A stretch of 64,000 bases of DNA from Eledone cirrhosa (Eukaryota): NCBI GenBank assembly GCA_964016885.1, contig OZ024746.1, forward strand, positions 30,256,001 to 30,320,000, written 5' to 3'. This document shows positions 7,601-61,995 of the stretch, one piece after another (position 1 is the first letter of the stretch; every line of letters begins with the position of its first letter). Made by a program: the position numbers and the translations under genes. The notes beneath the pieces are model-generated. The model was not told where the DNA came from, did not search any database, and worked only from the letters and a program-made list of their open reading frames with translations.

Positions 7601-7653
7601 CACACTATATGGCAATTAAATCTCTCCCAAATATATATATATATATATATATA

Positions 7654-7855
7654 TAGGAAAAAGTATGACCCCGACGGCAGAGCTCAAGCCGTTTCGACGG
7701 CTATTTATGGACTGAAAGAGTCCAGAAATAGACGTCGAAACGGCTTGAGCTCTGCCATCGGGGTCATACTTCTTCCTATTACCCACTCTACTACCCTAAG
7801 TATTGAGTACTCTGGTGCGTTATGGTCCATCTGGTTCCTTACCTCAATTCCTTCG

Positions 7856-7857
<2 letters not shown>
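7654..7857 (+). mobile_element. Fold-back element, family B (3' half of a hammerhead)
   Basis: Hairpin 7654-7777 plus unique tail ending ccttcgtt(ta)n; further copies at 7982-8072, 33013, 38168, 41789, 43886 and 47702. Confidence 0.85.
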
Positions 7858-7895
<38 letters not shown>

Positions 7896-7944
7896 TTTAT
7901 TATTTATATATATATATATATATATAAATATATATATATATATT

Positions 7945-7985
<41 letters not shown>

Positions 7986-8091
7986 TTTTCAGCCAGGCTA
8001 AAAATTCTAATTTAGTCCAGAAATACCCGTCGAAACACCTTGAGCTCTGCCGTCGGGGTCATACTTTTTCCTATATATATATATATATAAA

Positions 8092-8548
8092 ATAAAATAA
8101 AATAAAATAAATAAGTCAAATGTTTAAAATTTGGCTTCGTTTATTACTGCTATATATATTTCGGTGACAGCCATCTTTGGCTGTGGTAGAGACGAGTACA
8201 CATGTTGATGAGGTGTATAACTTTGTCAATACTCTGATATGCCCAGTTCCTTAGTGAAATAACAACCCAACCAGGAACTGGGCATATCAGAGTATTGACA
8301 AAGTTATACATCTCAACATGTGTACTCGTCTCTACCACACTAATTCGGACTACCTGAAGAGGTCACAGCCAAAGATGGCTGTCACCGAAATATATATATA
8401 GCTGTAATAAACGAAGCCAAATTTTAAACATTTGACTTATTTATTTTATTTTATTTTACATTACTCCGGAGTAACCAAACCAACCTGCGCACTTCGTCGA
8501 GTGCTCCAATCTGCATACTGAGGTGTTGGTATACAACCAACATATACT

Positions 8549-8550
<2 letters not shown>
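8092..8550 (+). mobile_element. Fold-back PLE-like element, family C
   Basis: Nested inverted arms 8092-8250 / 8273-8457; unfolded homolog at 56575-57082. Confidence 0.85.
8349..8405 (+). ncRNA. Hammerhead ribozyme, family C
   Basis: CTGAAGA-ggtcacagcca aaga tggctgtcacc-GAAA-tatata-TA; consensus stem I actgc/gcagt derived from the other arm and the 56758 copy. Confidence 0.75.
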
Positions 8551-8608
<58 letters not shown>

Positions 8609-15083: not shown

Positions 15084-15234
15084 ACACGGGTGTGTATGAT
15101 TGTGTATAGAAGATTATATTAATAAGAGGAATTCCAACTTTGTCTGATTTACTCGTTTTATTTACAATCCTTTAAAATTTATAATGGTATTATAATGAAA
15201 TAGTATGATAGAATATTAAATTCTAAATGTTAAT

Positions 15235-15273
15235 TGAACAAGTACTTTCATGCTTTCGCAATCGTCAGGTTCA
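15235..15273 (-). ncRNA. Minimal hammerhead ribozyme (mirror copy)
   Basis: Same as 15347-15385 but core CTGACGA. Confidence 0.85.
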
Positions 15274-15346
15274 TAATATGTAGTGACAGTCAAGTTTGCA
15301 ATTTTCAACGTTTGAAAATTGCAAACTTGACTGTCACCACATATTA

Positions 15347-15385
15347 TGAACCTGAAGATTGCGAAAGCATGAAAGTACTTGTTCA
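15347..15385 (+). ncRNA. Minimal hammerhead ribozyme
   Basis: tgaac-CTGAAGA-t tgc gaaa gca t-GAAA-gtac-TT-gttca. Confidence 0.85.
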
Positions 15386-15500
15386 ATTAACACTTACAAT
15401 TTAATATTCTACCATACTATTTCATTATAATACCATTATAAATTTTAAAGGATTGTAAATAAAACGAGTAAATCAGACAAAGTTGGAATTCCTCTTATTA

Positions 15501-15537
<37 letters not shown>

Positions 15538-15541
<4 letters not shown>

Positions 15542-15920
15542 TAAAAAGGAAATGAAAATGCTGAAAAATTTATCCCAGTGAAAAATAGTTTAATTAGGTA
15601 GAAGTATAAATTAGTAATAAGTATTAGTTAGTATTCAGTTTTAGTTTTAAGTGTTTACCGGTTTCGCATTTCTAAAAACAGGAAGAATTTCCAAAACTGA
15701 TCAGATTAGAGCAAAAATCTATCTCAAAATTATTTTTGAAAAGCATAAGAAATGCGCAACCGGTAAAAACTTAAAACTAAAACTGAATACTAACTAATAC
15801 TTATTACTAATTTATACTTATTCCTAATTAAACTCTTTTTCACTGGCAAAAATTTGTCAGCATTTTCTTTTCCTTTTTACTAATATATCACAACTCATGT
15901 GTCACACCTCTATTTTTTTA
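15538..15920 (+). mobile_element. Fold-back element, family E, with U3-A8 hammerhead at ~15733-15768
   Basis: Arms 15538-15673 / 15749-15883; TTGAAAA-gcat aagaa atgc-G(C)AA-ccgg-TA, with GAAA retained in the mirror arm. Confidence 0.8.
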
Positions 15921-26673: not shown

Positions 26674-26701
<28 letters not shown>

Positions 26702-26704
<3 letters not shown>

Positions 26705-27098
26705 GGAGGTGAGTTTTATTGTAGTACAATAAAGCAATGCAAATATCGGATAAGAAGCACTCTACAGTTTGTAGGACTGGAGTATACATAATATAAGATC
26801 AAAAGATGGTTAAAGGAGTTCCATGTATTTTATTATGCGCATTTCAAAAACAAACATCATCATGCAATAATATTTGTGTTTTCATCAGGTAAAACAGGAG
26901 AACATGATATGAAGGCTAAAAAACACTTGTGGATAGTGCAGTTGATTTAAAACTGCACTATCCACAAGTGTTTTTTAGCCTTCATATCATGTTCTCCTGT
27001 TTTATCTGATGAAAACACAAATATTATTGCATGATGATGTTTGTTTTTGAAATGCGCATAATAAAATACATGGAACTCCTTTAACCATCTTTTGATCT

Positions 27099-27106
<8 letters not shown>
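26702..27106. mobile_element. Fold-back PLE-like element, family G, copy 1
   Basis: Arms of ~160 bp around gtgcagttgatttaaaactgcac; (TA)n on both sides. Confidence 0.9.
27001..27065 (+). ncRNA. Hammerhead ribozyme, family G (mirror copy 26829-26893 on minus)
   Basis: tttat-CTGATGA-aaacacaaatat...atgtttgttttt-GAAA-tgcgca-TA-ataaa. Confidence 0.8.
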
Positions 27107-27900
<794 letters not shown>

Positions 27901-33012: not shown

Positions 33013-33014
<2 letters not shown>

Positions 33015-33205
33015 CGGAGGAAATGTGGTAAGGAGCCAAGTGGACCATAACGCACCAAAGTACTCAATACTTAGGGTAGTAGAGTGGGTAATAGGAACGA
33101 GTAGGACCCCAACGGCTGAGCTCAAGCCGTTTCGACGGCTAATTTTAGTCCAGAATTAGCCGTCGAAACGGCTTGAGCTCAGCCGTCGGGGTCCTACTCG
33201 TTCCT
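33013..33205 (-). mobile_element. Fold-back element, family B
   Basis: Tail plus hairpin centred at ~33149; GAAA-cggct tgagctc agccg-TC. Confidence 0.9.
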
Positions 33206-33225
33206 ATATATATATATATATAAAC

Positions 33226-38167: not shown

Positions 38168-38169
<2 letters not shown>

Positions 38170-38356
38170 CGAAGGAAATGTGGTAAGGAACCAGGTGGAT
38201 CATAACGCACCAAAGTACTCAATACTTAGGGTAGTAGAGTGGGTAATAGGAACGAGTAGGAGGCCGACGGCTGAGCTCAAGCCGTTTCGACGGCTAATTC
38301 TGGACAGAATTAGCCGTCAAAACGGCTTGAGCTCAGCCGTCGGGGTCCTACTCATT

Positions 38357-38359
<3 letters not shown>
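38168..38359 (-). mobile_element. Fold-back element, family B
   Basis: Near-identical to 33013-33205. Confidence 0.9.
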
Positions 38360-38444
<85 letters not shown>

Positions 38445-41788: not shown

Positions 41789-41942
41789 AACGAAGTGAGT
41801 GTGGTAAGGAACCAGGTGAACCATAACGCACCAGAGTACTTGATACTTAGAGTGGGTAATAGTAAAAGGGTCAGGTCAAGACCACCGACGGCTGAGCTTC
41901 GGCCGTTTCGACAGCTAGGTCTGAACAGTTCAGACCTAGCTG
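41789..41942 (-). mobile_element. Family B variant with a short fold-back
   Basis: cagctaggtctgaac a gttcagacctagctg hairpin after gccgtttcg. Confidence 0.75.
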
Positions 41943-42127: not shown

Positions 42128-42624
42128 CATACATATAAATCTCTATTCCTGTCTGTATCTCTTTATTTATTTATTTTCTTGTGTGAGTTACAATAAATGG
42201 TATTACAAGAGATATCACAAAAGGAGCAATGATTTTCTCATCAAACTAACATTAATGATCATTTATAGAAGAATAAAATCAAAGCACACCGTGAACAATA
42301 CCTTATAAAAGGGAATGAGGGGAGGCAGAAAATAATGAAATTTATAAAATGCAATAAACAACATAGAACAACATACTCTCTTTCTATATCATTACAATAC
42401 AGGATATTATATATATATATATATTGTTATACTTGGGGAGGGTCATATTTGTGTAATATTGCCAGAATTAATAACAGAACACACTCACTGTTTGGTTGGT
42501 TTTCGCTTTTCGCTTCTTTTATATCGGTAATCTAATTTATTCGGTCCTCAATGTTGCCATTGACTGACCAACGGTCAAAAATAATACAGATACAATATAG
42601 ACACAAATACATATATATAGTTTA

Positions 42625-42663
42625 TCAAAGTTCTTTCGTTGCACATCTGCAACATCGTCAGTG
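42625..42663 (-). ncRNA. Minimal hammerhead, family J variant
   Basis: ca-CTGACGA-t gttgca gatg tgcaac-GAAA-gaac-TT-tg. Confidence 0.75.
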
Positions 42664-42852
42664 GTGCTATTGTTTCCTCCCGTTACATTGTATTTTCTAC
42701 TGTTAAACTTTGGGAGGGTCATGTTTCCAATAAGAAACACACGCACCAGCTGCTTTCACTCCAATTTATTATAAATTAAATTCATAAATTTAAGAATTTA
42801 TAAATTTCCGGCTGGTTGGTTGGTTCCACAACCGGACGGTTGTTCATATATT

Positions 42853-42895
42853 GTCAAAGTTCTTTCGTCACACATTCTGTGACCTCTTCAGTGAC
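42853..42895 (-). ncRNA. Minimal hammerhead, family J
   Basis: gtca-CTGAAGA-g gtcaca gaatg tgtgac-GAAA-gaac-TT-tgac. Confidence 0.85.
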
Positions 42896-43020
42896 TAGGG
42901 ATTATTTTCTTTGTTTTGTGCCTCTCCTTTGTTCTGTCCTACGCCTTCTTGTTTTTGTGTGTGTTGTGTGCTTAGTTTGCGCATGTGTTACATCCGGGTG
43001 TCTGTGTTTTCATTTTGTCC

Positions 43021-43200
43021 TTAATTGTAAGTTGTGATGTTGCTATTCCATTCATGTTTTCTATTTAATTTTGGTTGGAGTTCATTTATGTTTATTGCCT
43101 CTGTCATTTGTCTAAACATTGCCTCTTTTCTGTGTGTAGATTCTATTTTTATTTCTATATTCTCTAATCTGCCCTTATGTTCTATTTTAGCATGTTGGTG
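43021..43200 (-). pseudogene. PLE GIY-YIG endonuclease C-terminal fragment
   Basis: LHQHAKIEHKGRLENIEIKIESTHRKEAMFRQMTEAININELQPKLNRKHEWN: H...RQxxEAxxI...PxLN motif. Confidence 0.8.
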
Positions 43201-43560
43201 GAGCGTCCGGTTGTGGAACCAACCAACCAACCGGAAATTTATAAATTCTTAAATTTATAAATTTAATTTATAATTTATTGGAGTGAAAGCAACTGGTGCG
43301 TGTGTTTCTTATTGGCTACATGACCCTCCCAAAGTTTAACAATATCGGTTTCAACACACGTTTACAGATAAAGAATCTTGCTAAACAAATTCAGAAACGA
43401 AATATATATATATATATAGTGACGAAACATAAGTCAATTGCATGAGCTCATAATCCTTTATTTACTGCTATATATATTTCGATGATAGCCATTGAATGGC
43501 AGTTAGTCAGTTCTTAGATTTGCCAGCTCTGTGTGTATGGTGTTGATGGTATCAGAGCCT

Positions 43561-43664: not shown

Positions 43665-43844
43665 AAGTATGTCGCTGGTTCAATCGGGGGTAACCACAAT
43701 AAGTAACGTACTCAATACAAAGCAGAGTATAAATATTTAATATAGAAAAGCTTCTACAGGACTAGAACTTTTTTCATTCGTGAGAAATCATCAGGAGCTT
43801 CCTGATGATTTCTGACGAATGAAACAGTTCTAGTACTGTAGAAT

Positions 43845-43846
<2 letters not shown>
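43665..43846. mobile_element. Fold-back element, family L, with hammerhead at 43798-43843 (+) and a mirror copy
   Basis: ttc-CTGATGA-t ttc tgac gaa t-GAAA-cag ttctagta ctg-TA-gaa; relatives at 37825-37955 and 41945-41990. Confidence 0.8.
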
Positions 43847-43885
<39 letters not shown>

Positions 43886-43888
<3 letters not shown>

Positions 43889-44075
43889 GAAGGGATTGTC
43901 GTAAGGAACCAGATGGACCATAACGCACCAAAGTACTCAATACTTAGGGTAGTAGAGTGGGTAATAGGAACAAGTATGACCCCGACGGCAGAGCTCAAGC
44001 CGTTTCGACAGCTATTTGAGTCCAGAAATAGCCGTCGAAACGGCTTGAGCTCTGCCGCCGGGGTCATACTTGTTC
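43886..44075 (-). mobile_element. Fold-back element, family B
   Basis: Same tail and hairpin as the other family B copies. Confidence 0.9.
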
Positions 44076-44108
<33 letters not shown>

Positions 44109-47538: not shown

Positions 47539-47847
<309 letters not shown>

Positions 47848-55299: not shown

Positions 55300-55364
<65 letters not shown>

Positions 55365-55366
<2 letters not shown>

Positions 55367-55567
55367 TAAAATAACAGATTAAAGTTTAAGCAAAGAATCG
55401 CTGCTTTCACCCTTAACGGGATCTTCAGAAGATCCCGTTAAGAGTGAAAGCAGCGATTCTTTGCTTAAACTTTAATCTGTTATTTTAATAAATATTTGCT
55501 CTACGGTTCTTATATATTTATCCTTATCGAGCCCTCTTTGGATTTTAGTCTTCAAATTTATTATTAT

Positions 55568-56574: not shown

Positions 56575-57082
56575 AAAATAATACGACCAATGGGATGCGA
56601 GAGTGTCCTATGACGCCGAAATTCGTTTGTTTTAGCTCATATGATTCCAGTTCCTCAGAGAAATAACAACACAACCAGGAACTGGACATATCGATGTATT
56701 GACGGAGTAAAACACACTTCAACAACATGTGTACCTGTCTTTCCCACACCAATTCGGACTGCCTGTAGAGGTCACAGCCAATGATGGCTGTCACCGAAAT
56801 ATATATAACAGTATATCTATAATTTATAATAAACGAAGCCAAATTTTACATATTTGACTTAATTATTTTAGTCAATACTCGCCGAGGTTAACTTTGCCTT
56901 TCATCCTTAAGGGGTCGATAAAATAAAGTACCAGTAATACACTGGGATAATTGCTGGCCTTGTGCCAAAAGTAGAAACAATTATTTTGCATTACTCCGGA
57001 GTAAACAAACCAACCTACGTACTTCGTCGAGTGCTCCAATCAGCATACTGAGGTGTCGGTAAACAACGAACATATACTCAAA
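56575..57082 (+). mobile_element. Unfolded family C copy interrupted by a 5'-truncated SINE family 1 (56880-56985)
   Basis: Colinear with 8245-8550; aattatttt flanks both sides of the SINE. Confidence 0.85.
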
Positions 57083-57116: not shown

Positions 57117-57421
57117 AGTTATGTAATAAACAACATAAGGCAATTATTCCATTTACCAGTGGTTTCTTAAAAGCAAAAAATTTTGCTTTCAATCATCAGA
57201 ATGAAAAAATCCTGGTCTATTTATTGAATTGGATTTTTTTTAAATCCAATTCAATAAATAGACCAGGATTTTTTCATTCTTATGATTGAAAGCAAAATTT
57301 TTTGCTTTTAAGAAACCACTGGTTAATGGAATAATTTCCTTATGTTGTTTATTACATAACTATTAAGCTCTGTTACCTACATAGATCACTCTTTTTTCCT
57401 GGACTTTTCCGACCGAATTAC

Positions 57422-61636: not shown

Positions 61637-61940
61637 GTAAAACAAGATGGCGAACAAAGAAGAGGCACAAAAACAAAGAAAAGAATCCCCAGTCACTGAA
61701 GAGGTCACAGAATGTGTGACGAAAGAACTTTGACAATATATAAACAATCATCTGGTTGTGGAACCAACCAACCAACCGGAAATTTATAAATTCCTAAATT
61801 TATAAATTTATTATAATAAATTGAAGTGAAAGCAACTGGTGCGAGTGTTTCTTATTGGCAACATGACCCTCCCAAAGTATAACAATATCGGTTTCAACAC
61901 ACGTTTTCAGATAAAGAATCTTGCTAAACAAATTCAGAAA

Positions 61941-61942
<2 letters not shown>
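61637..61942 (+). mobile_element. Family J PLE 3' end with hammerhead at 61692-61734
   Basis: Ribozyme identical to 42853-42895; ends cagaaacg(at)n like 43400. Confidence 0.9.

Positions 61943-61995
<53 letters not shown>

Follow-up and report, generated by a model that had tools for sequence, protein, structure and literature searches.

The window analysed here, 64,000 nt of the genome of Eledone cirrhosa, contains at 8092-8550 a repeat copy that is folded back on itself, and the question raised by this locus is where its second, inverted arm came from. A preliminary description had proposed that a prematurely terminated cDNA snapped back on a short native stem and primed its own second strand. 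The feature is a palindromic, two-armed stub of the 3' pseudo-LTR (pLTR) of a Penelope-like element (PLE). The earlier reading was right about the location of the fold and wrong or incomplete about the origin of the second arm.

Anatomy of the palindrome and identity of the element

The stem CCAGTTCCT, followed by 21 nt and AGGAACTGG, matched the window at two positions, 8243-8281 and 56647-56685, and had no match in 100 shuffles. The native stem of the unfolded copy at 56647-56685 does form the apex of the fold at 8243-8281, as had been described. The replacement of the sequence 5' of this apex by the reverse complement of downstream sequence was confirmed by alignment of the arms: in reverse complement, the left arm (8093-8251) matches 8273-8458 on the right apart from 2 substitutions, slippage indels of 3 nt and 2 nt, and one large gap. 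Positions in the element were numbered from the first C of the stem (position 0), which places the fixed short end B at about +216 and the fixed long end A at about +310 to +328, varying with the reference copy. The direct arm (8243-8550, plus strand) runs from position 0 to A and includes the tail, the segment between ends B and A (8459-8550, plus strand). The inverted arm (8093-8251, minus strand; locus L033) runs from +30 to B and has no tail. Further to the original observation, its outer stop is the fixed short end of the family, and the right arm continues about 92 nt beyond that stop to the fixed long end. The arms overlap by 9 nt at the apex (8243-8281, plus strand), where the native 9-bp stem encloses a 21-nt loop that reads in the sense direction. 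TA tracts adjoin both outer ends, at 8072-8091 on the left, where the tract is the target microsatellite, and at 8550-8601 on the right. We argue against a sequencing fold-back artefact, because the arms differ from one another and the tail is one-sided; in contigs of three public runs the window locus was not resolvable among the many copies. The locus is ordinary, one of hundreds of palindromic stubs.

A 27-mer from the arm had 6,819 exact matches in the 3.0 Gb of genome searched, and across the family the fixed outer ends A and B lie about 95-100 nt apart. The tail matches the stretch that comes after the pLTR on the way to the ATG, and full-length copies (L144 and L216) continue from it into a 5' UTR and an ORF. 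L216 consists of an inverted pLTR with tail, a direct pLTR with tail, the ORF, and a pLTR ending at B, and thus has direct pLTRs flanking the ORF with an inverted truncated copy adjoining. One of three ORF pieces, that of L073, had a marginal C-terminal GIY-YIG match in Pfam (22.7 bits against a cut-off of 22.6, E = 1e-4). Translations of the linked ORFs gave no Pfam or PDB match to a reverse transcriptase (RT) domain; they contain RMRWKAF, QLDIASYY, ITMGS and LYRDD, which we take to be RT motifs of PLEs. The element resembles the endonuclease-bearing (EN+) PLEs of the Penelope/Poseidon type as described in PMC3846280, PMC8557442 and PMC2377424, with a single ORF comprising a putative RT plus a GIY-YIG domain at the C-terminus, pLTRs, an adjoining inverted 5'-truncated copy, a tail at one end only, AT-rich targets and palindromes at inverted junctions. 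The one-sided tail, a feature of EN+ PLEs, is present here, and at about 95-100 nt it is longer than the 30-40 nt given in those descriptions.

The pLTR carries a predicted type I minimal hammerhead ribozyme with a palindromic stem III, TA, found by a core search, with the stems assigned by sequence and from intact copies. In the window it spans 8349-8405 (plus strand) with a predicted cut after 8400, and it comprises stem I (8349-8353 / 8401-8405), a CUGAAGA box (8354-8360), stem II (8361-8386) and GAAA (8387-8390), all on the plus strand. Its short helix I, long helix II and palindromic helix III match the architecture of the minimal hammerheads of metazoan PLEs (PMC4209133), from which it differs in that stem I is damaged in the window copy and cleavage is here predicted. 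The same source already noted opposite-strand hammerhead pairs 100-700 bp apart in Schistosoma. Among the 150 listed of 242 Rfam matches there was no hammerhead; those listed were microsatellite- or hairpin-driven miRNA matches only, below the gathering score and uninformative. Folding of the whole pLTR was no better than that of shuffles (z = -0.6 as RNA, +0.3 as DNA), and we claim no global structure.

The copied arm had also been said to skip the ribozyme core at 8339-8364. There is a gap, but it measures 28 nt, and no 26-nt placement fits. It can be placed anywhere from 8336-8363 to 8340-8367, a 4-nt CACA repeat making the position ambiguous, and its junction lies on that repeat at 8182-8185 (minus strand). 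The CUGAAGA box is lost in the gap, together with the 5' strand of stem I and a portion of that of stem II; GAAA and the cleavage site are kept. Skipping of the core does not belong to the fold: genome-wide, 2 arms have this junction, and of the 11 folds at the window stem 1 has it. The second arm belongs to another subfamily and has a different apex; both deletions lie on B arms of palindromes, which with n = 2 is too few to interpret. We take the deletion to be an incidental slip on the CACA repeat, outside the fold rule. Deletions specific to the copied arm were considered more broadly and set aside: five of at least 8 nt were found in 58 loci, all on the non-loop arm (one locus being symmetric), which is too few, and two loci dropped by the pattern (L031 and L036) have deletions on the loop arm, contrary to a copied-arm rule.

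Two other copies of the family lie in the window. The unfolded copy (56585-57081, plus strand) is single-armed and A-ended, has its native stem at 56647-56685, and shares 84% identity over 161 nt with the window fold. It is a diverged relative with a 108-nt foreign insert and does not represent the direct parent. This insert, a piece of a different repeat at about 56873-56980, near the B end, has at least 8 further matches in the window. The other copy, at 43454-43492 (minus strand), is a short decayed fragment with the 3' half of the hammerhead.

Further short palindromes occur at 15115-15505, 57117-57361, 55359-55495, 43728-43868 and 15533-15888, the first four with CTGANGA...GAAA cores, and other PLE families are the probable source of these stubs. 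A further dispersed family, which has a palindrome inside it, is found in TA tracts at 7653-8071, 33014-33207, 38169-38361, 43887-44079, 47704-47844 and 41790-41926; the first of these copies directly adjoins the window fold on the left. At 42425-43400 and 61684-61943 there is a family with inverted arms about 360 nt apart and hammerhead cores at 42891 (minus), 42661 (minus) and 61696 (plus). Elsewhere in the genome, three loci (L080, L082 and L085) have ORFs resembling other PLE-type RT or EN families beside or inside them, suggesting nested insertion at TA-rich sites.

Tails, loops and outer ends

A fold-back copy cannot exceed its template, so under snap-back the tail must sit on the arm that bears the loop. 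The window copy agrees with this expectation, and we counted the side of the tail against the side of the loop across the family. Among 61 loci folded in the stem region, 3 lacked the pattern, 5 were symmetric and 53 were asymmetric and scored. The loop arm carried the tail in 24 of these and the opposite arm in 25; 3 had no tail and 1 had one on each arm. In the three skipped loci the loop arm carried it. Hammerhead stem II folds gave 7 on the loop arm and 8 on the other (15 of 19 loci read, one automatic flag being corrected by eye). For both regions combined, 34 tails were on the loop arm and 33 (33/67) on the would-be copy arm, and tail side is thus independent of loop side in this family. 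Even at the window's own stem the counts were 8 and 6, with one of the 15 loci unresolved. The position of the fold stands as described; self-primed second-strand synthesis is not supported as the source of the inverted arm.

A second family, represented in the window at 26690-27111, has at least 371 loci. Fifty were read, restricted to gaps of at most 70 nt, and all 50 had exactly one tail; it was borne by the non-loop arm in 40 of 47 folds. Its B arms mostly extend to the 5' end, and its A arms fall short of it. The copies at 26690-27111 and 27167-27549 are adjacent palindromes of this hammerhead-bearing family, each with a one-sided tail, and the family shows a sharp start at ATATG, several times with a G before it.

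An unbiased sample was taken from the first 100 matches of the 27-mer along contig C1, of which 75 loci were scored after removal of loci that overlapped or were duplicates and of one truncated at the locus edge. Two-armed insertions were the majority outcome (50 of 77), and comprised 43 with one A and one B end, 1 AA, 1 BB and 5 with one arm ending elsewhere. The remaining 27 were single-armed, 15 ending at A and 12 at B. Pairing of one end of each kind in 43 of 45 differs strongly from independent ends, which would give half A+B (p = 6e-11). Both A and B were seen as the 3' end of single-arm copies as well as the outer end of two-arm copies, and we infer that they are priming sites. TA tracts flank most of the loci read.

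Within the 43 A+B insertions, the farther 5' reach belonged to the B arm in 22 and to the A arm in 9, and 12 were symmetric, two or three of these labels being shifted by internal deletions. In 6 of the 43 the A arm consisted of the tail only, so that the tail sequence of the inverted arm is absent from the direct arm. At four loci (L072, L073, L076 and L200) a tail-less B arm keeps part of the ORF, with no second pLTR, alongside a tailed A arm.

Apices, templates and the 5' end of the RNA

Random placement of apices relative to native stems would have spoken against the fold as first described. They were non-random, and favour self-complementary sequence. Microhomology of at least 4 nt was present at 10 of 22 resolved junctions of the unbiased sample (33 given, 11 without a resolved direct join, some owing to inserts and some to polymorphism failures) and, for the stem region, at 22 of 42 (50 given); the figure for random joins is 3%. 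By exact match, the window stem is the apex at at least 11 loci, with differing flanks; at least 100 loci fold in the stem-loop region, at least 356 just upstream of the stem, and at least 19, of one allele class, at hammerhead stem II. The commonest stem-region junction joins -8 to +40 (13 of 50), and 4 of 50 are of the window type. The zero-loop palindrome TCATATGA is the apex in about 26 of the 50 upstream folds listed, by a count made by eye, and ACGT, TTAA and TGCA serve as further zero-loop apices. A cDNA ending at the window stem is predicted to form a hairpin (-6.7 kcal/mol, z = -1.6), and none is predicted for TCATATGA (0 kcal/mol). The microhomology does not decide the mechanism, because fold-back and the pairing of same-sense cDNA ends both need self-complementarity.

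Some apices (such as G000:C1:372380681-372380736 and C1:126960625-126960672) contain the last 9-12 nt of the cDNA reiterated, as if by repeated realignment and copying. At L172 (G000:C3:242030544-242030620), a 26-29 nt inverted piece of tail is caught in the apex between the arms.

The two arms of an insertion are nearly identical. In 118 head-to-head pairs, 66 of the 1,736 sites diagnostic of subfamily differed between them, compared with 44% in random pairs, and the median divergence of the arms was 1.8%. Both arms were therefore copied from the same RNA or the same source, as snap-back would also have it. Templating by two RNAs of different subfamilies was considered and rejected: discordant arms were few (L097, L104, L107 and L178), and later conversion is suspected instead, because the apparent paralogue of L178, L179, is concordant over the same tract. 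L178 and L179 (G000:C4:36.1 and 37.3 Mb) share the same junction, and one arm of L178 carries the tract of the other subfamily. Ectopic conversion thus seems to occur among copies, and some reshuffling of arms after insertion is possible.

Premature termination, part of the original proposal, is not the rule. Of 127 arms, 39 end between -11 and -6, and 5 end at -1 to +1; in that upstream interval, TCATATGA leads the apices among 356 loci, compared with 100 loci for the whole stem-loop region. Single arms often begin exactly at ATATG, at -8, and 705 such starts lack the native upstream C. A count by eye put G before the -8 start in 35 of the 100 listed (p = 1e-4), and in 29 of 94 after excluding six in which the partner arm could supply it (p = 0.004), the expected frequency of about 19% being assumed from base composition. 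Reverse transcription of a cap leaves an added G, and the -8 site reads, in our judgement, like an initiator. Because of the added G and the initiator-like site, -8 is probably the transcription start, i.e., the 5' end of the RNA; the PLE promoter has been placed in the pLTR (PMC2377424). A second ribozyme generating the -8 end was considered, and by eye there was no matching stem I.

Proposed priming from both strands of the target

Because one end of a stub is nearly always long and the other short, two reactions are likelier than one fold-back. We lean towards an origin in which two target-primed cDNAs, one per cut strand of the TA tract, annealed head to head via the 9-bp stem. That two primings took place, whether the ends then paired directly or via a snap-back step, we hold with considerably greater confidence. 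Under this proposal the TA tract would be cut on both strands, with one RT starting from A and another, on the opposite strand, from B; they would copy the same RNA or RNAs from one source. Both cDNAs would be antisense, so their 3' ends could pair only at self-complementary sequence, where fill-in would follow. In the window, the cDNA primed at A would have reached about 0 and that primed at B about +30, with the 9-nt stem as their overlap; many other cDNAs would run to the 5' end of the RNA at -8. In the second family, we speculate, an RT trailing behind a leading one might leave the short A arm.

Several points temper the proposal. The window copy alone, with its tail on the loop arm, fits snap-back equally well, and genomic end-products cannot tell direct annealing of cDNAs from a prior fold-back. 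Copying one RNA twice needs strand displacement, which is hypothetical for a PLE RT, and target-site duplications are unreadable in TA tracts. Nor is priming from both ends obligatory, because 27 of the 77 unbiased insertions are single-armed.

A variant in which A and B are both primed, one cDNA folds on its own stem, and the resulting sense copy pairs with the second cDNA is conceivable, and we think it rather unlikely. True stem-loops do serve as apices, namely the 9-bp stem, hammerhead stem II (19 loci) and the outer ATATG/CATAT stem (13 of 50), the cDNA hairpin is predicted to form, and the short reiterated copies at some junctions resemble self-templated synthesis. Insertions made by R2 show cDNA snap-back, especially after full-length cDNA (PMC11371274). 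The variant requires an extra step, however, and the commonest apex is a zero-loop sequence with no predicted hairpin, which suits the pairing of two like ends; other zero-loop apices (ACGT, TTAA and TGCA) are used too.

Self-priming alone, by which one antisense strand folds and copies itself and the outer ends are set later by endonuclease cuts at A and B or by recombination, is improbable. Junction palindromes beside inverted pLTRs with an optional tail were read in PMC3846280 as self-priming on an antisense template, and PMC8557442, which calls the PLE cycle undefined, ascribes the tail to endonuclease resolution. Junctions at self-complementary sequence and a single template for both arms agree with such a reading, and the internal pLTR and tail of L216 could be the fold-back template for a tail, this copy being compatible with either model. 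The copied arm should never exceed its template, however, yet in 33 of 67 folds, and in 40 of 47 of the second family, it is the supposed copy that bears the tail. The six inverted arms made of tail only have no sequence in common with the direct arm, and neither fold-back nor flipping of the loop yields them, the latter because the required homology is lacking. Collapse between pLTRs fails as a rescue because the ORF would be lost, yet L072, L073, L076 and L200 retain ORF sequence and lack the internal pLTR that recombination would need. Self-priming alone is thus already contradicted at the tail-only and ORF-bearing loci.

Rearrangement of a single-arm copy after insertion, or an assembly artefact, is very improbable: short inverted repeats seed template switching during replication and break-repair rearrangements, and microhomology deletions were found in the arms, but the outer ends are the fixed ends of the family, next to TA tracts, and neither flank is duplicated; substitutions and indels separate the arms; neither the pairing of one end of each kind nor arms of tail alone would be expected; and the same pattern recurs at hundreds of loci in two families.

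Priming of both target strands has parallels in known systems. The green anole PLE protein (PAc Poseidon) cleaves and extends both strands in vitro, from two start sites that bound the tail, and is predicted to form a dimer; its pLTR also has a hammerhead (PMC11167929). There the start sites did not differ between the two strands, and what is accessible of that report neither describes one-of-each pairing nor links the two sites to inverted arms, whereas the genome here shows one of each per insertion. The hammerhead and tail lie upstream of the ATG here and overlap it in PAc Poseidon (PMC11167929). In the twin priming and proposed dual priming of LINE-1 (PMC2837659), both target strands likewise prime and head-to-head cDNAs meet at an internal junction; L1 twin priming uses the poly(A) tail and a variable internal site and gives non-overlapping pieces, whereas the two sites here are fixed and overlap between the cDNAs is usual, which gives palindromes. 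Snap-back 5' junctions of R2 (PRINT) also place an inverted copy of the insert at the 5' side, often after full-length cDNA (PMC11371274). Such a copy never outruns its template and has no fixed outer end; inverted arms here can outrun the would-be template and do have a fixed outer end.

The element class is known, and the family-wide rule represents a variant mechanism that is open to testing. The accessible portions of PMC3846280, PMC8557442 and PMC2377424 treat architecture and self-priming or endonuclease resolution, with no count of tail side against loop side and no proposal of two-strand priming. Priming from two ends was not found applied to PLEs in the literature searched, from which subscription papers are largely missing, and prior art is possible. 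We give roughly even weight, for and against, to a general PLE rule in which an RNP dimer would start one cDNA on each target strand, each from its own fixed site on the RNA, and join the same-sense cDNAs through self-complementary sequence close to the capped 5' end.

The count of tail side against loop side separates the models, and it can be applied to any PLE-rich genome. If two-ended priming is correct, the one-sided tail, the inverted pLTR and the palindromes at the 5' ends of pLTRs would all follow from a single rule, which would replace antisense self-priming, and there would be a function for the pair of in vitro start sites and the predicted dimer in PMC11167929. The many short palindromes in PLE-rich genomes would also be explained. 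If such priming is the normal course, PLEs, unlike LINEs, would do without an ordinary second-strand step at the 5' junction.
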